Part shown: in pieces, positions 3,232 to 64,000 of the stretch | How the letters are laid out: each line of letters starts with the position of its first letter | How positions within the stretch are numbered: the stretch's first letter is position 1 | Origin: an uncultured Leptospirales bacterium | Lineage (GTDB): Bacteria; Spirochaetota; UBA4802; UBA5550 | Direction: 5' to 3' | DNA length: 64,000 bases | NCBI GenBank assembly: GCA_964392365.1 | Contig: CAYMPH010000011.1 | Span: 29,851-93,850, forward strand | Made by a program: the position numbers and the translations under genes | The notes under the pieces: generated by a model | Databases searched by the model: none | Seen by the model: only the letters and a program-made list of their open reading frames with translations | Told to the model about the DNA's origin: nothing

Positions 3232-3351
3232 CCCTGTATTTCTGGAAAAATTCATTATTATTAATATGATAATTTTTTTTACTTGGAAAAGTATAAAATT
3301 GATATTATTATAAATGAATGAAAAAACTAATAATATATCTGGAGGCTCAAG

Positions 3352-42851: not shown

Positions 42852-43445
42852 TTATTTCTTCCTTTGCCACTGGCCGTTTTTGTCCTGAATCCAGTCATTT
42901 TTAAGAGCTGAATCTGACTGTTCTTCGGCAAAAATTTTCCCCAGTCCGGCAATTATATCATCTTCCGGCTTTTCATTTTTTACATTCTGAACTGCTTTTG
43001 TAAATATGATTTTTCTGGCATTGTTTTCTTCATCAATAACTTTCAGCAGTACATTTTTTTCTGAAGCGGAGTTTTCATATTTATTTATTTTGATATAAGA
43101 AACAAAACCGGTGTTTGCTTCGCCGAGAACACCTTCATCTTTATAACTTCTGATTTTATCATAATGAAATTCCCTGATCTTCATTGCCTTGAAAAGCTCC
43201 GGGTCTGAAGCTGCTGCAGTATTTGACCCTTGAGTTCTCTGAACAGTTGTTCTGATGGAAGATATAACCCACGCATCCTTTTCAAGCTCTTTATATTCTC
43301 CGATAATCTGCCTTTCAATTACAGTTTTTTCTCCGGTAATTTGAATTTTCGGAGGCACTATACCGATAAAGGATGAGCAGCTGCTTAATACTGTGATTAT
43401 AAAAATGAAAAGCAATAATGGAAATTTTTTTATCATATCAATCAC
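42852..43445 (-). CDS. DUF1318 (YdbL-like) lipoprotein
   Basis: Lipobox LSSC; KDEGVLGEANTGF, ENNAR and WIQDKNGQW..K match DUF1318. Confidence 0.8.
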   Translation of the reverse strand: MIDMIKKFPLLLFIFIITVLSSCSSFIGIVPPKIQITGEKTVIERQIIGEYKELEKDAWVISSIRTTVQRTQGSNTAAASDPELFKAMKIREFHYDKIRSYKDEGVLGEANTGFVSYIKINKYENSASEKNVLLKVIDEENNARKIIFTKAVQNVKNEKPEDDIIAGLGKIFAEEQSDSALKNDWIQDKNGQWQRKK

Positions 43446-46600: not shown

Positions 46601-48142
46601 TTGAAAAACTTTATAATTAAGACTATAGTATTTATCCCTCTGTTTCTACTTATTGTAATTCCCCTTAATGCTGAATATCTCTTTCTGAAAGACGGATCAA
46701 TTATTAAAGGCAAAATTGTTTCTGAGACAGCGAATGATGTTGTTATAAGTGATGAGCAGAACAAGGCAGTCGCATATCCTCATAATAAAATTTTGAGGGT
46801 GCTTTATACTGAAATAAATATGGGTAAAATCTATGTGCAGCTGAAAAACGGTGAAAATTTCAGAGGCTATCTAATTGATGAAGACCGGGACACATATACT
46901 TTCAGATATATTATAAATAGGCCTGAAGAATTTACAGTTCAGAGGTCGAAAGTTCTTTTTATAGCTGAAAGAAATCCGTCTGAATTAAAAGGTGAAAGCA
47001 GCTATACTGAAATTTCACTAACCTGGTCTCCTCCGTATGATAAAATGAAATCATATAATATCTATTATAAAAAAAATAAAAATGATAAGTATATAATTGC
47101 TGATAAAGCATGGAAGAATTCATTTAATCTTAAAGGCCTTAATAACTTCACTAAATATATTATAATGGTAACAGGTGTAGATGATACTGGAGTTGAAACC
47201 ACACCAAGTAATGAAATAGAAATATCGACATTAGCCAAAGTTGATGTTGAACTTAAAAATGGAAAAACATTAAAAACAAATCTTGTTGCTGAGGACTGGG
47301 AAAAATATACTTTCCGCAACAATATAAGAAAGGTTGAAGATTTCACAGTAAAGCGTGCAGATGTTCTTTTTATTACAGAGCGTTTCCCTTCCGGTTTGAA
47401 GGGTAATGCTGATTTTAACACTATCTCACTTAAATGGATTGAGCCGTATGATTCTGTGAATGAATACAAAATTTATATTAAGAAAAAGGGTGAGGATTAT
47501 AAACCTGTTTCAACAACAGGAAATAATTCAAAAACAGTTAAAGGTCTTGCAGCAAATACAGAATATACTTTAAAGGTAACAGGCATACTTAAAAATAAAA
47601 CTGAAACTGCGCCGAGTAATGAAATTAAAGTGATAACTGGATTAGAGAAACCTCAAGAAAAAAATTTACTCCCATCAGGCATAAGGATTGCTTATATGCT
47701 GGGAATTCCTTTTACTTTACCGCAGAGAAATATCTACTCTAATCTTCATGGAGTGGATTTGACTTATTCTTATTTTTTCAGCGACTATATATCAATTAAA
47801 ACAGGTGTTAATTTTATAATTGGAATGCAGCCTATAGAAAACGCGACAACAGTTCAAAGTGCGTTAAATATCGGTGTGAATTTTGGTTTTCCGATCAAAG
47901 ATTTTATATATCCATATACAGGAGTTTCTGTAAGAGGATTGTGGCTGCATGAAGAATGCAGAGGAAGGATTATGGATTTCGGCGGTATTGGAGTTGACTG
48001 GAATCTTGGAATTGCTTTTACAATTGTAAAGTTTTTCGGTCTATATGCTGAATACACATTAGGCTGGTCTGCTGCTCTTGACAAATCCACAACAGATATA
48101 AGTTCAATGTCAATAAAAGCTGGCATATTCTTTAGATTTTAG
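46601..48142 (+). CDS. Outer-membrane protein with repeated small beta domains, two Fn3 domains and a C-terminal beta-barrel
   Basis: Signal peptide; LKDG/LKNG domains x3; Fn3 motifs (LTWSPP..YNIYY..GL...TKY; LKWIEP..YKIY..GLAANTEY); ends AGIFFRF. Confidence 0.75.
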   Translation: MKNFIIKTIVFIPLFLLIVIPLNAEYLFLKDGSIIKGKIVSETANDVVISDEQNKAVAYPHNKILRVLYTEINMGKIYVQLKNGENFRGYLIDEDRDTYTFRYIINRPEEFTVQRSKVLFIAERNPSELKGESSYTEISLTWSPPYDKMKSYNIYYKKNKNDKYIIADKAWKNSFNLKGLNNFTKYIIMVTGVDDTGVETTPSNEIEISTLAKVDVELKNGKTLKTNLVAEDWEKYTFRNNIRKVEDFTVKRADVLFITERFPSGLKGNADFNTISLKWIEPYDSVNEYKIYIKKKGEDYKPVSTTGNNSKTVKGLAANTEYTLKVTGILKNKTETAPSNEIKVITGLEKPQEKNLLPSGIRIAYMLGIPFTLPQRNIYSNLHGVDLTYSYFFSDYISIKTGVNFIIGMQPIENATTVQSALNIGVNFGFPIKDFIYPYTGVSVRGLWLHEECRGRIMDFGGIGVDWNLGIAFTIVKFFGLYAEYTLGWSAALDKSTTDISSMSIKAGIFFRF

Positions 48143-51462: not shown

Positions 51463-52044
51463 TTATTTTTCTGTTCCCTTGATTTTTTCCATTATATTTT
51501 TACTGTGATTTATAATAATAAAAATAAAAATTGATGCAGCACCTGCAATTTCAAAATTATTATATCCTGTTGCGCCAAGCATACCTAAAGTAAGAACAGC
51601 AATCATAAAAAATGAAGCTAAAAATGGAATACGCGCTACAAAATATAATATAACCCATAATTGAGCTGCAGCTGCAGCTGCATATGGATTGACTATTGTT
51701 GAGAATCCGAGAAAATTAGCAACTCCTTTGCCTCCGCGGAATCCATGAAATACAGGGAATCTGTTACCGAATATAAGTGCAAGTCCAACCCAGGAAATAT
51801 AACCGGCAGGAAGAAAAGTTACACACGCAAAAGCAACAGCGCATGATCTGCCCATATCCAGAAGAAATACAATCGATGCCCATAATAAACCAGCCTGCCT
51901 GTACACATTTGTAACTCCTGCATTTCCGCTGAATTTATCTCTGGGGTCGCCCAGTTTGAGTATTTTAAAGGTCAGTATTGAAAAATTTATAGAGCCTGCG
52001 AGGTAGGCTCCGAGAATAAATATTGCATATATTTTTAAATCCAT
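51463..52044 (-). CDS. plsY: Glycerol-3-phosphate acyltransferase PlsY-like
   Basis: YLAGSINF, SGNAGVTNVYR, LDMGR and FRGGKGVA motifs. Start reassigned to ATG 52044 (AGGTGA RBS). Confidence 0.85.
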   Translation of the reverse strand: MDLKIYAIFILGAYLAGSINFSILTFKILKLGDPRDKFSGNAGVTNVYRQAGLLWASIVFLLDMGRSCAVAFACVTFLPAGYISWVGLALIFGNRFPVFHGFRGGKGVANFLGFSTIVNPYAAAAAAQLWVILYFVARIPFLASFFMIAVLTLGMLGATGYNNFEIAGAASIFIFIIINHSKNIMEKIKGTEK

Positions 52045-52064
52045 TGTATCACCTGATTGATTTT

Positions 52065-52090
52065 GTTCATCTCGGCTCCGCTCGATGAAC
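52065..52090. repeat. GAGCGGAG-family REP-like hairpin (minus orientation)
   Basis: GTTCATC-TCGGCTCCGCTC-GATGAAC; same core as the 29.1-kb repeats and 52288-52310. Confidence 0.6.
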
Positions 52091-52156
52091 AGATATTTAA
52101 TTGTAGCATTTAACGAAATAACTAGCGCTAATAAATTCAACAGAAATTAGTTTTTT

Positions 52157-52221
52157 TGTCATCCCCGTGAAAACGGGGATCCAGACTACAAAAATGGATT
52201 CCCGCCTTCGCGGGAATGACA
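52157..52221. repeat. GTCAT...ATGAC REP-like doublet, copy 2
   Basis: TGTCATCCCCGTGAAAACGGGGATCCAG-actacaaaaa-TGGATTCCCGCCTTCGCGGGAATGACA. Confidence 0.85.
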
Positions 52222-52281
52222 GATTAAAATCCACAACTCAGGAAAACCTTCACCCGTTTTTTATTTAGGAGAGGGTGAACA

Positions 52282-53787
52282 TTAACGCTGGTCGAGCGGA
52301 GACGAGACCACAGTAAATAAATGATTCATATATTCAAAATGCGCTGCTTCGTATATATTATCTTTAAATCTGAATCTGCTTATATTTTTTCCTGTTTCAA
52401 CAATAACTGCTTCTTTCCAGGCATCTGCAAGATTTGATCTGAAAGCTTTTACTGCACATTCCTTTACAGACCATATTCTAAGTGATGCTTTATTTTTATT
52501 ATCTGATTTTTCCACCAGTATAATTTCATCTTCATTCATAAAAGTGGATTTTGTTTTGTTTACTCTGTCTGATATTTCTTCAACATCAACGCCGATGAAT
52601 CCATTGCCTGCCAATGCAATTGCAAATCTTGAATCATGCGAAACACTGCAATTCATTTCAATACTGTTTCCGCAGATTGGAAAATTATCTGAATCTACAG
52701 TATTGATCTTTTCAGGAGAAATATTATAATCATTTGAAAGTTTTCTTGTGAGAATTTTACACGCAAGTCTTGCTGATGTGAAACTTTTTATCCTTTTTTC
52801 TAACATGGATTTTGATCTTTCAAGTTCAATGTCAGAAAAAGTTTTTCCTGAGAACGGGGCATCCTTTCCGACTTCTACAAGTGAATAGCCTGCATAATGC
52901 AGCAGAAAATCATTTAATCTTTTTTCATCAGAAATACCATTAGAAATCCATTCTGGTGCTTTCAGTTTCCCTGCAGTTACATCCGACATTTTCAAATTTG
53001 AAACTGATTCCATTAGAATCCCGTCCATGCTGTAAATGTAAATATTATAATAGTTTGTATTTTTTTCAGTACTTACAGGAATAATTCTTGTGTGATATAA
53101 TCCGTTTTTTTCAGTCTGATGATATATGGTTCTGTTTTCGAATCCTACGGGAAATCCGGTAAATCCGCTGTATCTCTGCCCCCAGACGCATGCTATATGA
53201 AAAGCAGCATCAAGAGGAAACGGCGATCCAAGAGGTCCGGGAAAAAATTCTGCTGTTCCTCCTGAAATTGTTCCCATAGCTCCGCTTCGGGAAATATAAA
53301 TTTTATCTACTGCATTTCTGAAGCTTTTAAGAAATGGAACAAGTTCTTCATATAGTTTATCCGGCGATATTTCTGTAACAGGCCCTTCAATAATGCACGC
53401 TGTATCAAGCGGTATGGATTTTGTTTCATTAATTTTTAAATTAAAAATAACTTTCGCATTTTCGACTTTCCGTTTTATAGAACCGTCTTTTGATGATTTA
53501 ATTGTGGATATAGTTGCAGAAATTTCTGTGTCAGAAAAATTAAAATCTGCAATTGCTTCGAGAGTTTTCTGATCAGGAGTTATCTCAATGAACCTGCTGA
53601 ATGCGGCAGAGGTTATTGTATTGATATTAATATCAGGCATAATGCTTTGAAGTGCTGATGCGAGAAACTGCATTTCTTCAACAGCAGGAACAACAATTTT
53701 GCCGTTGAACTGATGGTCTTTGATATAATTTCTTATATCAATTTTCAGCGGCATAGATTTAGTATTTACTGAGGAAATGTTTTCCAT
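52282..53787 (-). CDS. PKS-type dehydratase fused to Sfp-type 4'-phosphopantetheinyl transferase
   Basis: DH motifs DHQFNGKIVVP (HxxxGxxxxP) and LDAAFH; PPTase motifs SVSHD, IGVDVE and WSVKECAVKA. Confidence 0.8.
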   Translation of the reverse strand: MENISSVNTKSMPLKIDIRNYIKDHQFNGKIVVPAVEEMQFLASALQSIMPDININTITSAAFSRFIEITPDQKTLEAIADFNFSDTEISATISTIKSSKDGSIKRKVENAKVIFNLKINETKSIPLDTACIIEGPVTEISPDKLYEELVPFLKSFRNAVDKIYISRSGAMGTISGGTAEFFPGPLGSPFPLDAAFHIACVWGQRYSGFTGFPVGFENRTIYHQTEKNGLYHTRIIPVSTEKNTNYYNIYIYSMDGILMESVSNLKMSDVTAGKLKAPEWISNGISDEKRLNDFLLHYAGYSLVEVGKDAPFSGKTFSDIELERSKSMLEKRIKSFTSARLACKILTRKLSNDYNISPEKINTVDSDNFPICGNSIEMNCSVSHDSRFAIALAGNGFIGVDVEEISDRVNKTKSTFMNEDEIILVEKSDNKNKASLRIWSVKECAVKAFRSNLADAWKEAVIVETGKNISRFRFKDNIYEAAHFEYMNHLFTVVSSPLDQR

Positions 53788-54245
53788 AATTCAACTGTTT
53801 TCGGGTCAACAGCAACGGGCATTCCTGAAAGATTTAATGCGCAGTGTCTTGTATGACCTGAACAGATCAGTTTGTAATTATCAGCATGAGTTATTATATA
53901 GTCAAATCTTAAGCGTACTCTTTCAAGTGCAACAGGCCTTGTATGAACGTACATTTTATCGTCATAGTATAGCGGAAAATAAAAATCAATTCCAAGATCA
54001 ATAATAGGATAAACGTATCCGCTGTCTTCGATTTCTTTGTATGGGTATGCAGAGTCTCTCATGAGAGAGGCGCGGCCGTGTTCAAAATATCTTAAATAGT
54101 TTGCGTGATAAACAACCTGGGATCTGTCTGTATCTGCATAGAGAGTTCTGTATTCGCATCTGTGCCAGACAAGGCCTGTTGTTTTGTCGCGCATGTAAAT
54201 ACTGTCGCCGTTTATCGGTTCCGGTATAAATGGTTTTGGTTTCAA
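53766..54245 (-). CDS. YbgC/FadM-type acyl-thioester hydrolase
   Basis: YADTD...VVYHANYLRYFEHGR hot-dog thioesterase motif. Confidence 0.9.
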   Translation of the reverse strand: MKPKPFIPEPINGDSIYMRDKTTGLVWHRCEYRTLYADTDRSQVVYHANYLRYFEHGRASLMRDSAYPYKEIEDSGYVYPIIDLGIDFYFPLYYDDKMYVHTRPVALERVRLRFDYIITHADNYKLICSGHTRHCALNLSGMPVAVDPKTVELWKTFPQ

Positions 54246-55511
54246 TTAAGGCCTCCTGAATACAACGCAGCAGTTTGTTCCGCCGAATCCGAACGCGTTT
54301 GACAAAAAAATATCGTAATCAGATTTTCTCGCATTATTGGGAACAACATCAATATTGTCAAATGCAGGATCCGGAATATGATTTATAGTAGGAAGAATAT
54401 ATCCTTTGTTCATTGCTTCAATCGAGAATGCAGCTTCAATTGCTGCAGCTGCTCCGAGCGTATGGCCAATCTGAGATTTGTTTGATGATACAGGAATTTT
54501 TGAAATATTTTTTCCGAATACTGTTCTCAGGCACTCAACCTCGGTTTCATCACCGCGCGCTGTTGATGTACCGTGCGCATTTACATATTGTATATCTTCA
54601 GGCTGAAGTTCCGCATCAAAAATAGAATCATTGATTGACCGGATTATTGTTTCAGGATTCGGTCGGATAAAATGATGCGCATCTGAAGTCCATCCTATTC
54701 CGAGAACTTCAGCCTTTGGCGTGAGCCCGTGCGCTTTAACTGCTTCCTCAGCTGCAAGAACCAGAACTCCCGCACCTTCGGATAAAATGAATCCCTTCCT
54801 GTCTATGCTGAATGGACGTGATGCCTGGCCCGGATCGCTGAATGCGCGGTCTGTTTCCTTTACTTTAAAGGTGGCATTCATGTTTTCAAAGCCGTGTATG
54901 ATTTCAGGCAGGATGCAGGTATCGACTCCGCCTGCTAAAACAAAATCGCAGTCCCCGTCTCTTATCATGCGTGAACCGATTCCGATTGCGTGATTACCTG
55001 AAGCGCAGGCTCCCTGTGGTGAAAAAATGGGGCCTGTAAATCCAAGCAGCATTCCTGCTTTGCCTGATGGAAGATTTGAACAGAGATTAGGCAGCAGATA
55101 CGGGCTTACTTTTAGATGACCTTTTTTAGTCAGGTTATCCATTGCTGTTCTGTATGCGTCTGATCCGTTGAGAGCTGATCCTATAAGGCATGCAGTTCTC
55201 GGCGCAGTTTGTGGGTTCATTTCAATCCCGGAGTTTTCAAGCGCTTCTTTGCATACTGCCATGGTAAGCAGAACGAACATCGCATTCCAGTGGTAGATTT
55301 CCTTTTCATCAGCAAAGCCGAGCTTGTGCGGGTCCCATTCCGGAATTTCACCTACAATGCTGCTCGAAGCATTAATTTTGCATCTTGTAATTTTGCTGAA
55401 GCCTGCTTCGCCGTTAAGTGCTCTGGCAAAAGATTTATCAAAAGTAGAGCCAAGAGGCGTTGCTGCTCCATAGCCTACAATAAAAACGCGTCTGTTTTTC
55501 GGTGCTCTCAT
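54246..55511 (-). CDS. FabF-like beta-ketoacyl-ACP synthase
   Basis: Catalytic GACASG, HGTST and GHTLG; SNAFGFGG. Confidence 0.93.
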   Translation of the reverse strand: MRAPKNRRVFIVGYGAATPLGSTFDKSFARALNGEAGFSKITRCKINASSSIVGEIPEWDPHKLGFADEKEIYHWNAMFVLLTMAVCKEALENSGIEMNPQTAPRTACLIGSALNGSDAYRTAMDNLTKKGHLKVSPYLLPNLCSNLPSGKAGMLLGFTGPIFSPQGACASGNHAIGIGSRMIRDGDCDFVLAGGVDTCILPEIIHGFENMNATFKVKETDRAFSDPGQASRPFSIDRKGFILSEGAGVLVLAAEEAVKAHGLTPKAEVLGIGWTSDAHHFIRPNPETIIRSINDSIFDAELQPEDIQYVNAHGTSTARGDETEVECLRTVFGKNISKIPVSSNKSQIGHTLGAAAAIEAAFSIEAMNKGYILPTINHIPDPAFDNIDVVPNNARKSDYDIFLSNAFGFGGTNCCVVFRRP

Positions 55512-55524
55512 TTATGTCAAATTC

Positions 55525-56772
55525 CTAATTTACTTTTTTAAAAACTATACAGGAGTTACAGCCTCCGAAACCGAAGGAATTTTTCAACAAAAATTCCTGT
55601 GAGACCTTTCTCGCGCCTTCAGATACACAGTCAATTGCAATTTCAGGATCAGGCGTGTAATTTATCGTAGGGAGAAGAATATCATTCTTCATTCCGTGCA
55701 TTGCAAAAATAGATTCTATTGCGCTTGAAGCTCCCATTGAATGGCCGATTAAAGACTTGTTGGCTGATACCGGCGGTATTTTATCTCCGAAAATGCTGGT
55801 AAGAGCATCGTATTCGATTTTGTCTCCGATTTTTGTGGAGGTGCCGTGAGCGTTCACTGCATCTATATCCGCTGAAGATATTCCTGCTTTCGAAATTGAT
55901 TCGCTTATGCATCTTGATACAGTTGCGAGATTCGGAGCTACAAAATGATTTGCATCAGAAGTCATGGAATAACCGGCAATTTCAATTTCATATTTTATTC
56001 CGTGGGCTTTTGCATATTCTTCTGAGCATATGATAATTGCACCTGATCCCTCTGATATAATAAAACCTTTTCTATCAATAGAAAAAGGCCTGCTTGCTTT
56101 TTTGGGATCATCATCCGGTACGCCAGGTTTTGATTTGAAAGCCCCGTTCATTGTTGCAAATCCGGCAACTATAGGCTCAACAAGGCACGCATCAACTGCA
56201 CCGCAGATTACTGCATCTGCCATATTATTTTCAATCAGCATTGATCCTATTATCATTGAAGTGGCGCCTGTTGCACACGCGGTTATTGTTGATGTAATGG
56301 GGCCAGTAGCTCCGGTTAAAATAGAAACTTTTCCGCCAATCATGTTTATGCAGGAATTGGGATTTGTAAACGGGTGAGGAAGTTTTCCGGACGCTATCAT
56401 TTTTCTGTCCGCATTTAATACTGCATCTAAACCGCCGACTGCAGTACTGAATGTAATGCCGATTCTATGTGCGTTTTCAGGAGTGATTTCAATTGAGCTG
56501 TTTTTCAGAGCGCGGAAAGCAGTTAGCATTCCATATTTAAAAATTGGAGCTGTCCAGTGTGCCATTTCACGAGGTCTTAAAAACGGATAAGGATCGACAT
56601 CAATTTCCTGAATCTCTCCGGCAATCTTTACCGGGAACTCATCATTATATTCAAACCGTGTGAGTTTACCTATACCGCTTTCGCCATTCAGGGCTCTATC
56701 CCAGGCTGGAAGAAAATCATTGCCGAGTGATGATACAGCATCGTATCCGGCAATTACGACTTTTTTTTTCAT
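55525..56772 (-). CDS. FabF-like beta-ketoacyl-ACP synthase
   Basis: Catalytic TACATG, HGTST and GHSMG; KNSFGFGG. Confidence 0.93.
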   Translation of the reverse strand: MKKKVVIAGYDAVSSLGNDFLPAWDRALNGESGIGKLTRFEYNDEFPVKIAGEIQEIDVDPYPFLRPREMAHWTAPIFKYGMLTAFRALKNSSIEITPENAHRIGITFSTAVGGLDAVLNADRKMIASGKLPHPFTNPNSCINMIGGKVSILTGATGPITSTITACATGATSMIIGSMLIENNMADAVICGAVDACLVEPIVAGFATMNGAFKSKPGVPDDDPKKASRPFSIDRKGFIISEGSGAIIICSEEYAKAHGIKYEIEIAGYSMTSDANHFVAPNLATVSRCISESISKAGISSADIDAVNAHGTSTKIGDKIEYDALTSIFGDKIPPVSANKSLIGHSMGASSAIESIFAMHGMKNDILLPTINYTPDPEIAIDCVSEGARKVSQEFLLKNSFGFGGCNSCIVFKKVN

Positions 56773-56781
56773 CTGGAGATT

Positions 56782-57780
56782 CTACCAGGGAATAAATTTA
56801 TAGAGCTTGGCAAACATTTCATAAACCTCAATCCAGTTCTGAAGGTCTTCTGTTGTTCTGATATGGTCTCTTTTGTTGACCATAATCCAGCTCATTGTAG
56901 CAGCACCGTCTTTACATGTTGTGCAGTCCCTTGTTTCCGATGTGCAGCATCTATGCGTTGTTTTAAGATCCGATGCATATCTGATAAATCTGATAAGCCT
57001 TTTCGGCTGCGGATCTCTCTTGTCGAATGATTCAGTTACAGAAGGGCACTCATTCCAGCCGAACGGCCGTCCAAGCATTTTACCTTCTGTGATAACTTTA
57101 TGATAATATTTAGATGATATAACCGTGTCAGGATATTTGTCGAGCATTGCGTCCATTTCGTTTTTTACATTTAGAAGCTGTTCTGTTGTCCATGAAAAAC
57201 CATCCACGCTTTCATCGTTTGATAACAGCTGCATATGCACTTTGAGTCCTGCATCGCGGATTTTTTTAATTACAGTTTCAGTTTTGCCTATCTGCCTTGG
57301 TGTAATTGTGTACAGATAATATGTGTACTGATCGCCTTCATAGTTTTTTCTGGAAGTGCCGAATGTATTTTTCCCGCGGAGAACAATCTCATCCTCTTCA
57401 TCGCCCCAGAGTGAAATTCCAACCATCATGTCAGGAAATCTGTCGCGCGGGACTTTTATTATGCCGTTCGTTGCGCAGTATGTAGGAAGTTTTTTGTAGA
57501 AAGCTTCAACTCTGTCGAGATATAGTGTTGGCTCGCCGCCAATAAGAATAGCAAGATTTACTCCGCGTTCTTTTTCCTTGTCAATAAATTCATCCCATTT
57601 GTTTATATCAGGCTCATCTTCTCCAACCTTGTGCTCGTTTGAAGAAAAGAAAAAACATCCCTTGCACCTGAGATTGCATTTATTTGTTAAATCGTAGATA
57701 GAACTTCTGATATTAAGCTTCGATATATTTTTATATCTGTCGTGCCATTCTTTATTTAAAAGTGAACTGACTGTTACCAT
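56782..57780 (-). CDS. Radical SAM protein (paralog B)
   Basis: CNLRCKGC, GGEP, TNG; C-terminal CPS...CC.....C..C. Confidence 0.9.
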   Translation of the reverse strand: MVTVSSLLNKEWHDRYKNISKLNIRSSIYDLTNKCNLRCKGCFFFSSNEHKVGEDEPDINKWDEFIDKEKERGVNLAILIGGEPTLYLDRVEAFYKKLPTYCATNGIIKVPRDRFPDMMVGISLWGDEEDEIVLRGKNTFGTSRKNYEGDQYTYYLYTITPRQIGKTETVIKKIRDAGLKVHMQLLSNDESVDGFSWTTEQLLNVKNEMDAMLDKYPDTVISSKYYHKVITEGKMLGRPFGWNECPSVTESFDKRDPQPKRLIRFIRYASDLKTTHRCCTSETRDCTTCKDGAATMSWIMVNKRDHIRTTEDLQNWIEVYEMFAKLYKFIPW

Positions 57781-57798
57781 TAATTACCCTCTGTATTA

Positions 57799-58881
57799 TT
57801 AAAGTTCCCGGCCTGGAGCCGGAATTAGTTTATTGCAAAGATTCTTCCCTTTTTCATATCCCATAACCCATACTGCAAGATATGTATCAACAAAATCAAG
57901 CCATGATCTGAATTGATCCGGATTGGCTGCATGCCTGTAAAGTCTTGCAGTAACAACAGCGCTTGCTGCAGCATAGTGCCTGCAGTCAGGGCAGTCTGTA
58001 TCCGGAACGCAGCAAGCAACATCACGGTCCCAGGAAAGATCGGCCCTGTACTGCCTGAATGATCTTCCAAGACCAATATCTTCAGAAGGATTCATTCTCG
58101 GATATGAACAGCTGTAAAGATCATGTAATCCGTCTTTTGATGTATGTGCTATAATATTATAATATGAAAAAAGTACATTATCCGGGTATTTTTCAAGAAC
58201 ATCTGTCATTGCTTTACGTACAGCAAGCAACGTTTTTTCAGTGTGTCTCAGATGACCTGTATATCCGACAGGTGAGGAAAACATATTGAATGTAATTTTA
58301 CAGTTATTGGCTGCAATTATTTCCATTACTTCATATATTTCATTAACATTTTCGCTTGTGAAGGTATATACAAATACTGCTCTCGGATCGTCTTTGTAGT
58401 TTTCAATCTGTTTAATAAGTAGATTTTTAGCATTGCGTATTCTATCGCTGGATGAGTCGTTTCCCCATACAGAAATATGAAGTTTGTATCCGACAGATTC
58501 AGAAATTTTTTTAAAGCCGTTTGTTGCAATGCTGCCAAGAGGCATTTCATCATAGCATGCCTGTAAAATATCAGGAACAAGTGAAGGCTCAGCTCCTGCA
58601 AGAACAACATATGTTATGCCGCGAGCTTTTTCCTCTTTCATCAGTGCGCGCCATGCTTCGGGATCGTTGTTTTCTTTTGCGAACTGTTTGTCACCCTCGA
58701 AATAATAACAGCCGTTGCAGCGGATGTTGCACCTGTTGGTCATGTCATAGGTTGTTTCTCTGAGGAAGAAAAATTTTCTAACCTTCTCCCATCTTTCCCT
58801 TATCTCCGGATCTTTTAAAAGATCTGAAAATTTCCATTTTTCAGTTTCAGGCAGAGTTGTTTTTTCAATTTTTGAATTCAT
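57799..58881 (-). CDS. Radical SAM protein (paralog A)
   Basis: CNIRCNGC, GAEP, TNG; C-terminal CSY...CC.....C..C. Start reassigned to ATG 58881, just after the ACP stop. Confidence 0.9.
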   Translation of the reverse strand: MNSKIEKTTLPETEKWKFSDLLKDPEIRERWEKVRKFFFLRETTYDMTNRCNIRCNGCYYFEGDKQFAKENNDPEAWRALMKEEKARGITYVVLAGAEPSLVPDILQACYDEMPLGSIATNGFKKISESVGYKLHISVWGNDSSSDRIRNAKNLLIKQIENYKDDPRAVFVYTFTSENVNEIYEVMEIIAANNCKITFNMFSSPVGYTGHLRHTEKTLLAVRKAMTDVLEKYPDNVLFSYYNIIAHTSKDGLHDLYSCSYPRMNPSEDIGLGRSFRQYRADLSWDRDVACCVPDTDCPDCRHYAAASAVVTARLYRHAANPDQFRSWLDFVDTYLAVWVMGYEKGKNLCNKLIPAPGREL

Positions 58882-58888
58882 TTTTTTA

Positions 58889-59140
58889 TCAGGATATTTT
58901 TTCTTTAATATAATCAGCGATTTTGGAAACTGTTGAAAGTTTTGGATAATCGTCTTCATCTATTGTTATGCTGAATTCATCCTGTAAAACCAGTACAACT
59001 GTGGTAAGATCCATGCTGTCAATTCCCAGCTCATCAACAAGGTCAAGATCAACTTTAAATGTATCAGCAGTTGTATCTTCAAGCTTGAGCTCATCAATAA
59101 GAATTTGTGCAACCTTAAGCTGAATTTCTTTTTTATCCAT
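58889..59140 (-). CDS. Acyl carrier protein
   Basis: Acidic 83-aa protein with ELGIDSMD phosphopantetheine site; GGAGG RBS. Confidence 0.95.
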   Translation of the reverse strand: MDKKEIQLKVAQILIDELKLEDTTADTFKVDLDLVDELGIDSMDLTTVVLVLQDEFSITIDEDDYPKLSTVSKIADYIKEKIS

Positions 59141-59182
59141 TTTAAATAATCCTCCAGAATATTATAACATAATGCTTTATTT

Positions 59183-59539
59183 TTAATTTAAAGTTTCAAG
59201 AATTCCGCTGCAGGCCAGTTCGTCTTTCACATGTATTTTAAAATTGTAAATATCCGGGTTTTCAGAATTCCTTTTTATACTGATATTAATTTCTTCATCA
59301 GGTGAAATAAGCCTTCGAAATCTAACACGCCTTATTGATTTTATCTTTATATCAGTATTGCCTTTAAATGATTCGTGATTTTGAATAGCCTCAAACACCA
59401 TTGCGGTTTGAGCTATTCCAGGCAGTATCGGCTTATCATCAAAATGGCCGTCAAACCATAAAGAATTTCCCCCGGTTTCAGCTGTTGATGAAAATTCAAG
59501 GCCGCTAATTTCATTTATTTCTGATAATTTATGCCACAT
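59183..59539 (-). CDS. FabA/FabZ-like (ApeI-like) 3-hydroxyacyl-ACP dehydratase
   Basis: WFDGHF..KPILPG motif and VRFRRLISP. Confidence 0.8.
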   Translation of the reverse strand: MWHKLSEINEISGLEFSSTAETGGNSLWFDGHFDDKPILPGIAQTAMVFEAIQNHESFKGNTDIKIKSIRRVRFRRLISPDEEINISIKRNSENPDIYNFKIHVKDELACSGILETLN

Positions 59540-59646
59540 TTTTCAGACATTAATCCAAAAAGCAAAATTTATACAGCTTATTGTAAATCCGGTAGAGGGG
59601 CTTGAGTGTCAACAAAAAAAAAGAGGACATGATTTAAAAAAATTTA

Positions 59647-61107
59647 TTATTTCTTTTTTATAGCTTTTGCTTCAATAAGCATTCCGCCGTTGATAATAGA
59701 ACGGAACAAATGCCCTGATACTTTAATATCTGAAAATCCGGCTTGTTTCATATATCTCCTGATTTCCCGGCTGCTCCTTGCCCTGAGCCATACTCCCTGC
59801 CTCAATGCATTCCCGATTTGGACAAAAAATCTGAATATAGACCTGCGGGAGGTTATAAAATATATTACGCCACCGGGTTTTAATGATAAATATGCTTTAC
59901 TGATTATTCCTTCAAGATCATAAATATATTCAAGTGCGGAAAACGAGCAGATTGCATCATATTTTTTATCAGAATTAAATTCCTCGATATCTGTAACAAC
60001 AGTTGTGATATTTTTTATTTTATTCTGATCAGCTTTGTTTCTAAGGACATTAAGCATGTTTGATGATATATCAGCCGCAAATACCTGTTTAACTTTTTTT
60101 GCAATTGGCAGAGTGAACCTGCCTGTTCCTGCGCCAAGTTCAAGGACTGTAAAATTCTTTTTTAAATCTGATTCAAATGAAGTTAAAAAAAGTTCCCATT
60201 CTTTCTGTCTTGCAGGTGAAACAGAAACTTTAGATTGCTCAGTATCATAATTCTGGCCAAGATCGTCATAAAAAGCTTCAGCAGGATTTTTGCTTTTTTT
60301 CTTCCCGGTCATTATTTCTCTGCCTGTAAGTTCAGACAAAGGAACTATATTGAAATTTTTATTTTTTATACCAAAAATCAGTTTTTCAAATTCAGATATC
60401 AAATAATCCGCAGTGGAGTTCTTTGGAAATGTATCATGAAGGAGAATAATATCCCGGGCTTTAACTTTTTTTAAAATTTTACCTGATAAATTTTTAATCT
60501 TTCTATTGCCTATGTCGCAGGCTTTAACGCTGAAATTTACGCAGAATAAATTTTCTTCAATGAGCAATTTCCACAATCTCGGGCTTGTTATTCCAACAGG
60601 AGGCCTGAAAGCGCGGGTTTCAACTCCGAAAGATTTAATGACATTGCAGGCTTTATTTATTTCAGATTCAAGCTCCCGGTAGGATTTCAGCATTATAAAA
60701 GGATTATGGCTGTATGTATGATTGCAGATTTCATGACCGTCTTTTAAAATATTCCGTATAATCTCAGGATGTTTTTCCGCATTTATTCCGGTAACGAAAA
60801 ATGATGCTTTCAGGCTGTGTTTTTTTAAAAGTTTTAAAACAAGCGGGGTTATAACCGGATCAGGCCCATCATCAAAGGTAAGAGAAACCGAATCAGGAAG
60901 TATGCCTTTGCTTGTAACAGGAAGAAAAAAGCTTGTGCGCGGAAAAAATGGAGCAGCTGCGCAAATAATAATAAACAGTACAAGTGGAATAAAGAAATAT
61001 TCCGGAGCAATAAACAGAAGAGCTGCTGCAGTCTGGAATGCTCCAATGCCGAAAAGATGAGCAGGAGCAAGAGGAAATATAAGTGGACCTTTTTTTAAAT
61101 TTTTCAT
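59647..61107 (-). CDS. Membrane-anchored polysaccharide deacetylase fused to class I SAM methyltransferase
   Basis: NodB motifs TFDDGP, NHTYSH, FRPPVG and ILLHD; methyltransferase motifs LELGAGTG, DIS..ML and LKPGG. Confidence 0.85.
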   Translation of the reverse strand: MKNLKKGPLIFPLAPAHLFGIGAFQTAAALLFIAPEYFFIPLVLFIIICAAAPFFPRTSFFLPVTSKGILPDSVSLTFDDGPDPVITPLVLKLLKKHSLKASFFVTGINAEKHPEIIRNILKDGHEICNHTYSHNPFIMLKSYRELESEINKACNVIKSFGVETRAFRPPVGITSPRLWKLLIEENLFCVNFSVKACDIGNRKIKNLSGKILKKVKARDIILLHDTFPKNSTADYLISEFEKLIFGIKNKNFNIVPLSELTGREIMTGKKKSKNPAEAFYDDLGQNYDTEQSKVSVSPARQKEWELFLTSFESDLKKNFTVLELGAGTGRFTLPIAKKVKQVFAADISSNMLNVLRNKADQNKIKNITTVVTDIEEFNSDKKYDAICSFSALEYIYDLEGIISKAYLSLKPGGVIYFITSRRSIFRFFVQIGNALRQGVWLRARSSREIRRYMKQAGFSDIKVSGHLFRSIINGGMLIEAKAIKKK

Positions 61108-62453
61108 TGGATGAGCAATTCCCAGAGAGGGCCTGTGTGCCCTCTTCTGTACATTTTTTCTGTTATGCGCTTTGTTTTATCTCCGCCGGAACCTACTATC
61201 CAGTTCTGTTTTTCGCCTTTTTTTTCTGTTACAATCCGTATTATTTCTTCAGTAGAAATATGATTTGACTGATAATAAACCGGATTAAGCAAATCATCGC
61301 TTTCTTTTATCATACCCTCGGACAATGCAATATCATACAACGCTGTATGTGGATAAATTCTTATGCCGCAGAAAAAAAACAGCACTGTTTTAAATAGTTT
61401 TTCTGCATTGGAAAGTGTTTCATCTAAAGTTTCACGGGTTTCGCCAGGACCTCCGAGCAGAAGGTAATGAGCAGTATAGAGATCCGCTTTAACAGCAGAT
61501 TCGTGAGCTTTGAAAACATCAGCAGTTTTAAATGGTTTTCTATATGCAGCAAGCATCCTGTCTGAAAGAGATTCTGTTCCGAATTCTACGTGAGATAAAC
61601 CGGCTTTTTTCATCAGAAAATAATAGTCTTCAGGAGGTACGGTAGGAGCGAAAAATGCTCCCCAGGGAATTGACACGCCTGCTTTGATGAAAGAATCTGC
61701 GACATCTCTGCTGTGTCCATAGTCTGAATTAAAAGCTGAATCTGTAATAAAGAAATATTTCGCGCCCGCATTTTGAATCTGGAGAACGGTCTTTGCAACA
61801 TCATCCGGCGGAATAATTCTCTGTGCTGAGCCTTCAATATGAGGGTATGTGCAGTATACGCATTTGAACGGGCATCCGCGTTTTGACTGAATGTTGAGCA
61901 TTCCGCCTTTTAACAGATAAAATGCCGCGTGCTGCGAATCGCCGGGGTTTGCTCTTGTGAATGAAGATTTCCACGGAGAAGGTATTTCTCCTTTCTGCCC
62001 GTTTGAAATTATTCCAGGAATACTGATCTTCGTTACATTTTTTTCGAGGGAATCAAGGAGAAGAGAAAATTTTTCACCTTCACCTATTACTCCATAATCC
62101 GCTCCGACCGCATTAAGTATTTTATCCGGGAAAATTGTGTATCCGCTTCCGCCCAGTACAACTGGAGAATTTGTATTTTTCTTTGTTTCTTCAACAAGCT
62201 TTTTGTATTCATCTATGAATCCAAGCGGGGAAGATGAATCTGTGTTATCCACATTCCTGATTGAAATGCCTACAACATCAGGTTTGAATGATATTATTTC
62301 AGACGAAAGATTTTCATAATTCTGCACAATATTCATGTCTATTATTTTGACATTATGCTTTTTGGAAATTGAAGCAGCAACATAATCCAGCCCAAGCGGA
62401 TAAACCGGGTAAGGGGCTGCAAGCCTGTTAGCTGATATAAGCAGTACTTTCAT
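61104..62453 (-). CDS. Cobalamin-binding radical SAM protein, lipid-biosynthesis type
   Basis: N-terminal B12-binding domain (PYPVYPLGLDY, GISIRNVDN, VLGGSG, GEGE) and RGCPFKCVYC; resembles TIGR04072 from memory. Confidence 0.85.
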   Translation of the reverse strand: MKVLLISANRLAAPYPVYPLGLDYVAASISKKHNVKIIDMNIVQNYENLSSEIISFKPDVVGISIRNVDNTDSSSPLGFIDEYKKLVEETKKNTNSPVVLGGSGYTIFPDKILNAVGADYGVIGEGEKFSLLLDSLEKNVTKISIPGIISNGQKGEIPSPWKSSFTRANPGDSQHAAFYLLKGGMLNIQSKRGCPFKCVYCTYPHIEGSAQRIIPPDDVAKTVLQIQNAGAKYFFITDSAFNSDYGHSRDVADSFIKAGVSIPWGAFFAPTVPPEDYYFLMKKAGLSHVEFGTESLSDRMLAAYRKPFKTADVFKAHESAVKADLYTAHYLLLGGPGETRETLDETLSNAEKLFKTVLFFFCGIRIYPHTALYDIALSEGMIKESDDLLNPVYYQSNHISTEEIIRIVTEKKGEKQNWIVGSGGDKTKRITEKMYRRGHTGPLWELLIQ

Positions 62454-62456
62454 AGA

Positions 62457-64000
62457 TTATTTTTTATTAAATATTTCAACTGCAGATATGAAACCGCCGA
62501 ATCCCAGTAGAAGTATTCCTTTGCCGTTTAAATCAATACCTGCGCATTTTACATTATTCACCATTGATAATAATGCGCCCGGAACAGATTCATTTCTTAC
62601 AAATCTTGATGCAAATGCAGCTGCTGCAGATGAAGAAGCTGAATATTCGCCTGTAAATTTTCTATATCTGACAATGCTTCCTTTATATTTTGTAATATTA
62701 ATAAACTGAGTCAGCTGCTTTTCTCCGGACTCATTATAGCAAGCAGGTATCCCGACGAATAAGGCCTTATATTCATTCCTGATCCTGTCAACTCCGCCCA
62801 GTTCTCTTATCAGAGAAAGAGCCCAATCTGGATTATTATATGAAATCTGATGATATGCCTGATTTAAATAAACGCCTGGGCTCTCGCTCATCTCAAGGCA
62901 AAATGCTCCGCCTCCGTCTGAATGAATGTCATCCATTGATGAGGATTTATCGAACATGGCTGTATATTTTTCGTGATACTCTTCAGCAGCAATAAGAAAA
63001 GATTTCGATCCCTGTTCTGCAAGCAGGCTTGCAGAAAGAAGTGCCTGATAAAATGAGCAGTCACTTCCTGTTACAGTAATGCACGGGCCTTTGGATTTAT
63101 ATTTGATAGCAAGAAGACCTGCTGGAGAATTATGAACAGAACCCACAAAATCAGTAGGGCTGACGAATTTCTCTTTTGTAGTGAAAAGGCTGTCTATGAA
63201 ATCATGGGTTTCAGTTAAAGGGCCCCAGTCTGTGCCGAAATAAATTGAATCAGGAGAAGAGTCCAGGCCGGAATCTTTCATGGCATCTTCAGCAAGTGAA
63301 AAAGTAATTTTTGAAAGGCGCTTCATTCTTCTTGCTTCGCGCGGATTGAATTTTTTCATGAGTTCAGTATCCGGGAATAGGCCTTTTATATTTTCACCGG
63401 AAGATATTTTATTAATGGAAGCGTTAAGATCACCGGCTCCAGTAAGGCACGATGCTCCGATTATTCTTAATGCGGGAAGTTTCCTTGATTGTTTTCCGCT
63501 TTCAAACATTCCGGGTTTTGCTATAACAGCAGATGCATTATTGCCGCCGAAACCGAGAGAGTTTGATAATACTGTATTTATATTTTTATTCTGCAGATTT
63601 AAAACGGGATTGATTCCCAGGCTTGAATCAGGATTAACACACCCTGTATTTGCAGGAATAAATCCTTCTTTAATTGCAATAGTGCTTATAACAGCTTCAA
63701 TGGCTCCTGAGGCGCCGAGTGAATGCCCGATCAGGCCTTTAATTGATGAAAGAGGCGGAATATTGTTTCCGAATAATCTTAAAACTGCAGCTGCTTCAGA
63801 CCTGTCATTATCAATAGTTCCGGTTCCATGCAGATTTATATAATCAATTGAAGAAGTCTCAATTCCGGAATCAAGCAGTGCTTTTTCCATTGCTGAAAAA
63901 GCTCCTTCACCATCCGGATGAGGCTGTGCAGGGTGATATGCATCACAGGAAAGGCCTCCGCCTAAAATTTCTGCAATTGCATTATCCGGTTTTTTCTCAA
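62457..64000 (-). CDS. Beta-ketoacyl synthase fused to a chain-length-factor-like domain; 5' end beyond the window
   Basis: Frame open to the window end (...GGGLSCDAYHPAQP...). KS motifs HGTGT, GHSLG and SLGFGG, then a second thiolase-fold domain (RRMKRLSK, SPTDFVGSVHN) lacking the catalytic Cys. Confidence 0.85.
   Translation of the reverse strand, partial: EKKPDNAIAEILGGGLSCDAYHPAQPHPDGEGAFSAMEKALLDSGIETSSIDYINLHGTGTIDNDRSEAAAVLRLFGNNIPPLSSIKGLIGHSLGASGAIEAVISTIAIKEGFIPANTGCVNPDSSLGINPVLNLQNKNINTVLSNSLGFGGNNASAVIAKPGMFESGKQSRKLPALRIIGASCLTGAGDLNASINKISSGENIKGLFPDTELMKKFNPREARRMKRLSKITFSLAEDAMKDSGLDSSPDSIYFGTDWGPLTETHDFIDSLFTTKEKFVSPTDFVGSVHNSPAGLLAIKYKSKGPCITVTGSDCSFYQALLSASLLAEQGSKSFLIAAEEYHEKYTAMFDKSSSMDDIHSDGGGAFCLEMSESPGVYLNQAYHQISYNNPDWALSLIRELGGVDRIRNEYKALFVGIPACYNESGEKQLTQFINITKYKGSIVRYRKFTGEYSASSSAAAAFASRFVRNESVPGALLSMVNNVKCAGIDLNGKGILLLGFGGFISAVEIFNKK

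Follow-up and report, generated by a model that had tools for sequence, protein, structure and literature searches.

A 64,000-nucleotide stretch of the genome of an uncultured Leptospirales bacterium (G000:C11:29851-93850, hereafter the window, in whose numbering gene positions are given; G000 is the host genome, and C1, C2, C3, C4, C8, C11 and C28 are contigs of it) ends in an operon encoding acyl carrier proteins (ACPs), ketosynthases (KSs) and radical S-adenosylmethionine (SAM) enzymes (rSAMs). A first-pass annotation had described twelve co-oriented genes here, and all twelve open reading frames (ORFs) were found on the minus strand between 51463 and 64000, with the identities assigned to them borne out by the ORF list, Pfam and NCBIfam. 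It had also advised looking beyond 64 kb, and the contig read onward completes the gene of a KS fused to a chain-length factor (KS-CLF) at 64646 and adds a thirteenth gene, ACP1, extending the operon 909 bp beyond the window end. In operon order, the genes encode ACP1, KS-CLF, a B12-binding rSAM, a fusion of a family 4 carbohydrate esterase (CE4) deacetylase with a methyltransferase, a small hotdog dehydratase (DH), ACP2, the radical enzymes rSAMa and rSAMb, the ketosynthases KSa and KSb, a 4HBT thioesterase (TE), a polyketide synthase (PKS)-type DH fused to a phosphopantetheinyl transferase (PPTase), and the acyltransferase PlsY (Table 1). Intergenic distances range from -22 to +107 nt, KS-CLF and the B12 rSAM being separated by 3 nt only, with the exception of 141 nt before PlsY. 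We consider it somewhat probable, at about 60%, that this operon is the core of a multi-locus accessory type II PKS/fatty acid synthase (FAS) lipid pathway of the TIGR04072 or antiSMASH "ladderane" kind, with an architecture resembling that of aryl polyene (APE) clusters and with the working proposed below.

Table 1. Genes of the operon and further features discussed in the text. Plain positions are window positions; an L number precedes positions in the numbering of that locus.
Feature	Position	Strand	Basis or remark
ACP1, 86 aa, first operon gene	64649-64909 (outside window)	-	PP-binding 40.8 bits
KS-CLF fusion, 729 aa	62457-64000, complete to 64646	-	Pfam ketoacyl-synt domains
B12-binding rSAM	61104-62453	-	TIGR04072, Pfam B12-binding and Radical_SAM
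Membrane-anchored CE4 esterase fused to class I SAM methyltransferase	59647-61107	-	Pfam
Small single-hotdog DH, FabZ/ApeI-like	59183-59539	-	Pfam FabA
ACP2	58889-59140	-	PP-binding 40.1 bits
rSAMa	57799-58881 (longest ORF to 58959)	-	Radical_SAM 30.9 bits (Pfam cut-off 29.5)
rSAMb	56782-57780	-	Radical_SAM 34 bits (Pfam cut-off 29.5)
FabF-like KSa	55525-56772	-	Pfam, TIGR03150 below cut-off
FabF-like KSb	54246-55511	-	Pfam, TIGR03150 below cut-off
YbgC/4HBT-type TE	53766-54245	-	4HBT_2, TIGR00051
PKS-type double-hotdog DH (residues 1-281) and Sfp-type PPTase (about 365-495)	52282-53787	-	ACPS
PlsY-family acyltransferase	51463-52140	-	PF02660
925-aa ORF	43438-46215	-	
513-aa protein	46601-48142	+	
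Two further rSAM genes	L001:4347-5935 (about 2.3-3.9 kb beyond window end)	+	
YhgA-like transposase	L001:7566-8444		
Second PlsY-family gene, 260 aa	L001:17152-17934 = G000:C11:109002-109784	+	PF02660 87 bits
AMP-binding enzyme, ACP, class I/II aminotransferase	G000:C2:18345-21782 (L096:4346-7783)		
Type I megasynthase, 2820 aa	G000:C4:83397-91859 (L099:3397-11859), outside window	-	
IS200-like transposase	G000:C4:166420-166989 (L133:2420-2989)		

The gene that most clearly places the operon is that of the B12 rSAM, which matches the NCBIfam model TIGR04072 ([quoted passage not shown]) over its full length (1-443/443) with 407 bits against a cut-off of 360, a score repeated by the genome search (406.6 bits). 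Pfam recognizes a B12-binding domain (65 bits) and a Radical_SAM domain (68 bits), the CxxxCxxC motif at 194/198/201 is invariant across 81 sequences, and homologues from Desulfobacterota and Spirochaetota are 50-62% identical. The next-best NCBIfam families are mostly C- or P-methylases (Trp 2-C-methyltransferase, PhpK, HpnR and the MCR Gln C-methyltransferase), the non-methylases BchE and BzaD also being among the matches. A paralogous B12 rSAM reaching 273-335 bits on TIGR04072 occurs in the related genomes G007, G040, G017, G030, G035, G018, G006 and G027. In G017 and G030, rSAMb and PlsY are present and this sub-cut-off paralogue is the only B12 rSAM, and it may stand in for the TIGR04072 enzyme in certain versions of the system.

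The other two radical enzymes of the operon also carry conserved motifs. Since the longest ORF of rSAMa would overlap ACP2, its start is probably the ATG at 58881. In the numbering of the long ORF it has a CxxxCxxC motif at 77/81/84 and a C-terminal CCx5CxxC that is invariant in 50 sequences, while rSAMb has CxxxCxxC at 35/39/42 and an invariant CCx6CxxC; these C-terminal motifs thus indicate an auxiliary cluster in both proteins. The two are 29% identical to each other. Across phyla rSAMa retains 59-73% identity and rSAMb, the most conserved protein of the cluster, 72-82%. A Foldseek search with the AlphaFold2 model of rSAMb (pLDDT 87.1) returned generic SPASM/twitch rSAMs only, the nearest being anSMEcpe (E 1.7e-10, TM-score 0.53), BlsE (TM-score 0.59) and SkfB, and gave no functional lead; an Atlas search with the rSAM found uncharacterised rSAM clusters only. 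The pair of non-B12 rSAMs adjoining FabF paralogues is strongly conserved, and its putative likeness to kuste3342/3343 of Kuenenia is read from the gene lists contained in PMC4790861 and PMC2649909. Two more rSAM genes lie just past the divergent LysM gene that flanks the operon upstream: one is QueE-like (TIGR04349, 223 bits, below the cut-off of 300), and the other encodes a 292-aa protein with weak matches to HpnJ and B12-rSAM cores and no B12 domain.

To place the operon among its relatives, loci were compared that carry the B12 rSAM family, of which 4807 clusters (90% identity level) had E<=1e-20 among 8000 candidates scored. On contigs representing one genome per species, a relative is encoded in 541 of 593 matched stretches, corresponding to at least 541 species genomes. 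The comparison covered the best 80 loci with 10-kb flanks, 34 of them with both flanks complete; ORFs were assigned by their best BLASTP match at >=30% identity, and the 13 proteins were also compared by tblastn. These loci belong mostly to Desulfobacterales and Syntrophales/Smithella, plus four metagenome-assembled genomes (MAGs) labelled Spirochaetota by NCBI. Cultivable candidates among the carriers of the family are Desulfonema limicola and, by the label of a MAG (L083), Desulfocapsa sulfexigens. Protein by protein they share 50-82% identity with the host operon (rSAMb about 72-82%, the KSs 57-75%, TE 58-76%), and tblastn shows the operon order to be kept across Desulfobacterota and Spirochaetota. 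Among the 34 loci with full flanks, homologues were assigned for ACP1 in 30, ACP2 in 25, KSa and the small DH in 23 each, rSAMa and rSAMb in 22 each, KSb in 21, KS-CLF and TE in 20 each, the DH(-PPTase) in 18, the deacetylase in 16 and PlsY in eight; in 14 of all 80, PlsY follows the DH gene. KS and CLF are usually fused (median 722 aa); fusion of the PPTase is a minority form. Recurrence of this order in unrelated genomes shows that the arrangement did not arise by chance alone. TIGR04072 and the gene inventories given in PMC4790861 and PMC2649909 uphold the relationship to anammox and Desulfobacterota loci proposed by the first-pass annotation.

Within the host order, we surveyed 61 genomes, G000 included, which are related and hence not independent samples. 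TIGR04072 scored above its cut-off in 11 of them and rSAMb was found at >=78% identity in 13; the genome of the same genus, G001, has the same layout as the host operon. In a quick tree of the B12 rSAM (SH-aLRT support only, midpoint root) the copies of the host order fall in at least three separate places, which suggests that the system was acquired several times within the order. The GC content of the operon is 0.389 as compared to 0.357 for the genome, a value reached by 5.8% of equal-sized windows, and its GC3 is host-like. As this anomaly is mild, a recent transfer of the operon, which we had considered, is not supported.

The condensing enzymes combine two types. The full-length KS-CLF matches ketoacyl-synt (112 bits), Ketoacyl-synt_C (97.5 bits) and Ketoacyl-synt_2 (PF13723, 47.4 bits against a cut-off of 25) in Pfam, and its top NCBIfam model is PRK09185. 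The KS half carries the Cys/His/His triad (C143/H283/H318). In the CLF half, Asp and Glu occupy the positions of the catalytic Cys and the second His, there is no HGTG, and Cys and both His are gone. ACP1 and KS-CLF hence provide a dedicated ACP and an active KS paired with a catalytically dead CLF-like KS. In a PDB search the KS half came closest to 9s5h_B (210 bits), followed by Iga11 (6kxd_A), and the CLF half to Iga12 (6kxd_B), 6qsp_B and 9s5h_C. KSa and KSb have intact Cys-His-His triads and score 356.2 and 373.7 bits on TIGR03150, both below the FabF cut-off of 493.75; the nearest PDB entries of KSa are canonical FabFs. The phosphopantetheine serine is kept in both carrier proteins, within DSI across the homologues of ACP1 and within DSM in 57 sequences of ACP2. 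Their nearest solved structures are 9ls6 and 6lvt, respectively, and neither could be tied to the anammox ACP, the entry code not being found in PMC9821293.

The remaining biosynthetic enzymes likewise retain their active-site motifs. The small DH scores 27.9 bits on Pfam FabA and 23.1 bits, under the cut-off, on the ApeI-like model; its GHFxxxPILPGIA motif is kept in 58 sequences, and its PDB matches are 3esi, FabZs and 6qsr_A. We take both 6qsr and 6qsp to be APE proteins. The TE (4HBT_2 47.6 bits; TIGR00051 78.7 bits, over the cut-off of 68.7) keeps DTDRS..VYH in 34 sequences. In the DH-PPTase fusion, ACPS reaches 39.5 bits and PS-DH only 19.4 bits, under its cut-off; DHxxxGxxxxP and LGSPFxLDaaxH are kept in 33 sequences of the DH, and the Atlas neighbours of the protein are PS-DH and ACPS+PS-DH clusters. 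Most homologues of this DH lack the PPTase, the fusion being seen in L024, L028, L067, L041 and G046. The deacetylase-methyltransferase (Polysacc_deac_1 100 bits, Methyltransf_25 67 bits) keeps the CE4 motifs TFDDGP, NHxxxH, RPPxG and LHD in 31 sequences; its homologues are mostly the deacetylase alone (about 270 aa), with the methyltransferase fused in 6 of the 32 loci having the gene.

The last gene of the operon belongs to the PlsY family, with 115.6 bits on PF02660 (cut-off 24.1) and 94.9 bits on TIGR00023, below the cut-off of 137.2. Its SGNAGxTNVYRQ and FHxFRGGKGVA motifs are kept in 15 sequences, and its true start probably lies near 52044. It is a member of the family whose substrate might not be the same as for canonical PlsY. 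The first-pass annotation had regarded this PlsY as dedicated to the cluster, and its distribution agrees: PlsY occurs in 15 of the 61 genomes, 14 of which also carry the B12 rSAM or rSAMb, and all 14 genomes with the B12 rSAM or rSAMb have PlsY. In the remaining PlsY genome (G002), PlsY, a lysophospholipid acyltransferase (LPLAT) and a LolA-like gene lie within about 4 kb. DegV/FakB is found in 14 genomes, namely the PlsY set minus G018, which is 63% complete, and the other 46 genomes have neither PlsY nor DegV. LolA-like genes are confined to the same 15 PlsY genomes plus one weak match, and LPLAT was found at E<1e-50 in 12. The host genome has FakA on the contig of the operon and two DegV genes, and PlsX was not found in it by either of two models. 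PlsY enzymes use acyl-phosphate as acyl donor; as the host genome lacks PlsX, the route needs a Fak step. A route from TE through Fak to PlsY explains the presence of TE and PlsY in one system without PlsX, and the co-occurrence in the 61 genomes supports it as a dedicated exit of the pathway. At 17 kb from the B12 rSAM gene there is a second PlsY-family gene of divergent sequence; its product is 30% identical to the cluster PlsY with altered motifs, it is limited to the host genus among the 61 relatives, and FakA follows about 7 kb further on.

Several genes that adjoin the cluster elsewhere are dispersed over other contigs in the host genome. A trio of hotdog DH, FabG and LolA-like genes lies on C8, and homologues of these three divergently adjoin ACP1 in 37, 35 and 30 of the 80 loci, respectively, the FabGs being 62-68% identical. 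An ACP-KS-LPLAT trio on C28 has counterparts adjoining the cluster in 4-6 loci at 45-71% identity, as far as the 10-kb flanks allow it to be seen. C4 holds two sites. At the first, an aromatic amino-acid lyase (PF00221, 508 bits), a 4HBT TE, DegV, a family 2 glycosyltransferase (GT2) and an LpxL-like acyltransferase stand in a row, and in L077, L086 and L089 the order lyase, TE, Fak, GT2, MMPL-methyltransferase, LpxL-like is found beside the B12 rSAM, the C4 row being the same without MMPL. In PDB searches this lyase is similar in score to solved histidine, tyrosine and phenylalanine lyases and mutases. The second C4 site encodes a fourth, B12-like rSAM, which is 74% identical to a G046 protein and found in 30 of the 80 loci. 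An MMPL homologue is encoded on C3, and an AMP-ligase adjoining FabD, with AMP-ligase homologues in 7 of the 80 loci, on C1. Genome G046 carries the whole set on one contig, including a FakA-FakB fusion (Dak2, FakA_M and DegV), GT2, MMPL-methyltransferase, LpxL-like, LolA-like, FabG and DH. It also has a phytoene-dehydrogenase-like (PDH-like) protein between KS-CLF and the B12 rSAM, which is found in 5 of the 80 loci. The host operon lacks this flavoprotein, which has the same position in anammox Cluster I, the best match to the G046 protein in the host genome being 25% identical and located elsewhere. The pathway thus extends beyond the operon to a ketoreductase (KR), a further DH, LolA-like, LPLAT, GT2, LpxL-like, MMPL and Fak proteins, the lyase, the AMP-ligase with FabD and the fourth rSAM. 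An IS200-like transposase directly follows the C4 lyase module, and a YhgA-like transposase lies near the upstream side of the operon; both fit the scattering of the parts of the system in this genome.

The host is a spirochaete, as the first-pass annotation had suspected: its genome (96.8% complete) encodes three copies of FlaA, the spirochaete flagellar sheath protein, which has no match in any of 14 control genomes. Such a host had been thought unexpected, and here the expectation did not hold, TIGR04072 passing its cut-off in 11 of the 61 genomes and the cluster being carried by the four Spirochaetota MAGs. No FabF, AcpP, FabZ or FabH was found in the host genome above the equivalog cut-offs, the best scores being 373.7 and 356.2 against 493.75, 44.6 against 70.45, 32 against 155 and 119 against 292 bits, respectively. 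KSa and KSb are the best FabF matches of the genome, which further has one FabD and one near-cut-off FabG (295.9 against 297.75 bits). Across the host order canonical FabF occurs in 2 of the 61 genomes, and 41 have no FabF-like gene at E<=1e-60. The comparison with housekeeping fabF and acpP that the first-pass annotation had called for thus yields no canonical copy in the host, cluster KSs below the FabF cut-off and a majority of relatives devoid of FabF-like genes. Since the lineage is mostly without FAS genes, the operon is not its housekeeping FAS and, from the distribution of sequences, is best described as accessory. Of the self-contained, ACP-based accessory pathway initially proposed, the accessory and ACP-based character stands; self-contained it is only largely, as further genes lie elsewhere.

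Two other loci of the host genome deserve mention. On C4, a type I megasynthase with the domains KS-AT-DH-MT-ER-KR-ACP-TE in an animal-FAS-like order is followed by genes for a PPTase of the Sfp type and a biotin carboxylase/BCCP protein. Ordinary fatty acids may come from this megasynthase in a spirochaete without type II FAS; as close copies exist only in G000 and G001 among the 61 genomes, we dropped it as the housekeeping FAS of the lineage. On C2, an AMP-binding enzyme, an ACP and a class I/II aminotransferase stand in a row, a trio that we consider reminiscent of bacterial sphingolipid or aminolipid starter modules.

From the gene identities, catalytic motifs, conserved gene order and co-occurrence described so far, we infer the following order of steps, radical chemistry and product. 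The fused PPTase would activate both ACPs. KS-CLF, together with the FabG-type KR and the hotdog DH from C8 and with the two dehydratases of the operon itself, would then build a short or unsaturated chain on ACP1, perhaps primed by decarboxylation of malonyl-ACP or by an acid activated by the AMP-ligase. The B12 rSAM, rSAMa and rSAMb would alter the ACP-bound chain at unactivated carbons, by C-methylation, C-C bond formation or desaturation, and the two FabF-like KSs would elongate it on ACP2. The 4HBT TE would free the acid, FakA with DegV/FakB would convert it to the acyl-phosphate, and PlsY would esterify the chain to glycerol-3-phosphate. LPLAT or LpxL-like acyltransferases and GT2 could finish the lipid, and the LolA-like carrier and the MMPL pump may deliver it to the outer membrane.

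Several observations weigh against this proposal. The 141-nt gap, together with a terminator-like hairpin in it (52217-52198), sets PlsY apart from the rest of the operon; as a terminator the hairpin is only a hint, the region having 4 terminator-like sites as compared to 1.9 +/- 1.4 in shuffles. PlsY follows the cluster in only the eight of 34 full-flank loci given above, and many carriers must therefore use another exit. The operon encodes no enoyl reductase and none was identified, no search having been aimed at one. Only synteny elsewhere and co-occurrence in related genomes connect the loci on C8, C28, C4, C3 and C1 with the operon. The models PRK09184 and PRK09185, which we take to stand for the APE-type ACP and KS, score 63.2 bits against 70 and 287.3 against 407, both below their cut-offs. 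The PDB entry 9s5h is, on our own reading, presumably the anammox FabF heterodimer. A look-up of sequencing runs returned four DNA runs from one study and none of RNA. Finally, we found no publication that assigns a product to TIGR04072 or ladderane-type clusters.

The closest described counterparts are the Kuenenia clusters kuste3603-3608, kuste2802-2805 and kuste3335-3352, which are ladderane gene candidates (PMC4790861, PMC2649909). The gene lists in these two papers name ACPs, FabF and a non-canonical FabF, B12 and non-B12 SAM radical enzymes, FabZ, FabG, an ACP synthase, SAM methylases, a polysaccharide-deacetylase-like protein, a phenylacetyl-CoA ligase, a glycosyltransferase and phytoene desaturases. 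Common to both systems are the TIGR04072 rSAM, a dedicated ACP, an active and a dead KS, a FabZ-type DH, more than one FabF paralogue and a PPTase. Both also have a polysaccharide-deacetylase-like protein, a SAM methyltransferase, FabG, an enzyme resembling phenylacetyl-CoA ligase, a glycosyltransferase and, going by the gene lists, an adjacent non-B12 rSAM pair. In contrast to Kuenenia, the KS and CLF are fused here, the PDH-like flavoprotein is missing, the host is no anammox bacterium, and TE, PKS-type DH, PlsY, Fak and LolA-like proteins belong to the system. In addition, the small DH is not close to amxFabZ, and AmxMT1 (8HD2) is not among the PDB matches of the methyltransferase at E<=1e-5. 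Putative orthology to the anammox genes is read from TIGR04072, one PDB match (9s5h, presumably the anammox heterodimer) and published gene lists. For the anammox pair FabF2/FabFmut, a KS/CLF-like heterodimer that decarboxylates malonyl-ACP has been described (bioRxiv 10.64898/2026.05.19.726425). The operon is of the same class as the antiSMASH "ladderane" biosynthetic gene clusters (BGCs) of non-anammox bacteria and the loci of Desulfotalea psychrophila. According to PMC9902471, such clusters are found and expressed in non-anammox phyla, among them Desulfobacterota and Myxococcota, where their function is not known. The kind is hence known and named, albeit uncharacterised, and the host locus is one more carrier of it, differing from other non-anammox copies in its deacetylase-methyltransferase fusion, the minority DH-PPTase fusion, the terminal PlsY and the dispersal of accessory modules over several contigs.

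A second family of counterparts is formed by the APE systems, in which KS/CLF, KR, DHs, ACPs, TE, methyltransferase, LPLAT, GT2, LolA-like, MMPL and aryl-acid supply each have a role. With APE/flexirubin systems and Iga11/Iga12 the present system has in common a KS whose CLF is of the PF13723 type, a FabG-like KR, small hotdog DHs, two or three ACPs, the 4HBT TE, methyltransferase, LPLAT, GT2, LolA-like protein, MMPL exporter and possibly an aryl-acid supply. The APE-type KR, DH pair, LolA-like, MMPL, LPLAT, glycosyltransferase and TE are all encoded in the host genome, on other contigs, and are cluster-adjacent elsewhere. Unlike APE systems, it has three or four rSAMs, a CE4 esterase, two extra canonical-looking FabFs, a PKS-type DH, and Fak with PlsY. 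The exit resembles the FakA/FakB-PlsY route of Firmicutes, in which free acid is phosphorylated by Fak and the acyl-phosphate is used by PlsY, as the host genome has FakA, two DegV and PlsY and no PlsX. It differs in that it appears as an accessory module beside a biosynthetic cluster, in a lineage otherwise without PlsX, PlsY and Fak, and in the fusion of FakA and FakB in relatives.

Given this likeness, the product might instead be an APE/flexirubin-like pigment: the MIO-type lyase would deaminate an aromatic amino acid, the AMP-ligase would activate the acid, KS-CLF, KR and DHs would extend it to a polyene, and the rSAMs and methyltransferase would decorate it, with acyltransferases, LolA-like protein and MMPL serving to anchor the pigment in the outer membrane. 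As to starter and product this reading narrows our proposal down, and we regard it as rather unlikely. It would account for the KS with a PF13723 CLF, for PRK09184 and PRK09185 as closest NCBIfam models, for the PDB matches to Iga11/12 and to 6qsp and 6qsr (APE proteins), and for the full complement of LolA-like, GT2, LPLAT, LpxL-like, MMPL, 4HBT TE, KR and DH pair. The lyase directly upstream of TE-DegV-GT2-LpxL-like, an order kept in L077, L086 and L089, and the AMP-ligase next to FabD with its homologues in 7 of 80 loci would supply the starter. However, the lyase resembles histidine ammonia-lyases about as closely as it does Tyr/Phe lyases and mutases, its module is cluster-adjacent in only 3 of 80 loci, and both PRK models stay below their cut-offs. 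APE clusters, moreover, are not known to have rSAMs, an extra FabF pair or PlsY, and the two intact FabF-like KSs and the Fak-PlsY exit fit a fatty-acid-like chain better. Alternatively, the B12 rSAM might be a C-methyltransferase and the cluster might supply methyl-branched, for instance mid-chain methylated, fatty acids for phospholipids. The methylases among the next-best families of the B12 rSAM and the fit of FabF-like elongation, TE and PlsY to a fatty acid speak for it. 10-Methylhexadecanoic acid is typical of Desulfobacter and anammox bacteria, and an "uncultured Desulfobacter" MAG (L021) carries the cluster. But some B12 rSAMs are not methylases, as BchE and BzaD among the matches illustrate, and two or three further rSAMs, the CE4 esterase, KS-CLF, LolA-like protein, GT2 and MMPL would be left unexplained, which in our judgement makes it distinctly unlikely.

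True ladderane lipids with concatenated cyclobutanes, as in anammox bacteria, would be in line with the shared hallmark B12 rSAM family and with an ACP/KS/dead-KS/DH/rSAM inventory that matches kuste3603-3608, 2802-2805 and 3335-3352 as listed in PMC4790861. The family is, however, known from ordinary anaerobes of at least 541 species; in PDB searches neither the small DH nor the methyltransferase comes close to amxFabZ or AmxMT1, respectively; and the operon lacks the PDH-like flavoprotein found in anammox Cluster I. Ladderanes are stated to be confined to anammox bacteria in PMC9902471 and PMC13459092, and D. psychrophila, with its related loci, is reported in PMC2649909 to have no ladderanes. 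We therefore hold a ladderane product to be very improbable, and the "ladderane-like" lipid of the first-pass annotation gains no specific support. Even less credible to us is that the operon is a plain housekeeping FAS with a general PlsY. The two KSs are the best FabF matches in a genome without canonical FabF, AcpP, FabZ and FabH, and of only two PlsY-family genes the cluster copy is the better match; yet most of the host order lacks any of these genes, the system is patchy (11-15 of 61 genomes) with copies of the order in at least three places of the quick tree, and the genus also has the 2820-aa fully reducing type I FAS/PKS with TE. Three rSAMs, a CE4 esterase and a KS-CLF in an operon without enoyl reductase also speak against it.

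The accessory lipid pathway with a Fak-PlsY exit thus remains our preferred reading. As a wider and tentative conjecture, which we put forward as possible while expecting that it may well fail, TIGR04072 clusters, present in hundreds of anaerobe species, might encode undescribed rSAM-tailored and possibly aryl-primed acyl glycerolipids that are cyclised, cross-linked or multiply methylated, pass into the envelope by a portable route from TE through FakAB, PlsY and LPLAT and arrive at the outer membrane by way of the LolA-like and MMPL proteins, with anammox ladderane synthesis being a specialised offshoot of an APE-like ancestor. In agreement with the first-pass annotation, no characterised product for this architecture was found in the literature. 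As far as PMC13459092 and the other works cited go, published work ties no ladderane-pathway enzyme to a product, and that 2026 review still presents the rSAM chemistry only as proposals.

The operon is flanked by the divergent LysM gene on its upstream side and by a convergent pentapeptide-repeat gene on its downstream side. Further into the window lie a 925-aa ORF without Pfam family and a gene for a 513-aa protein that combines two fibronectin type III domains with an outer-membrane beta-barrel domain at its C terminus.

The locus bears on the making of ladderanes and on the role of ladderane-type clusters outside anammox bacteria: the system goes far beyond the usual cluster call in size, is APE-like and travels with its own Fak-PlsY-acyltransferase exit and export genes, features that together predict a membrane-bound glycerolipid product. 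It further illustrates that a complete module for making lipids can be acquired by a spirochaete lineage devoid of type II FAS. The interest hence lies in the class of clusters and in the picture of a portable lipid module more than in the host copy, and if the glycerolipid reading is true, the pathway would be open to study in cultivable non-anammox carriers.

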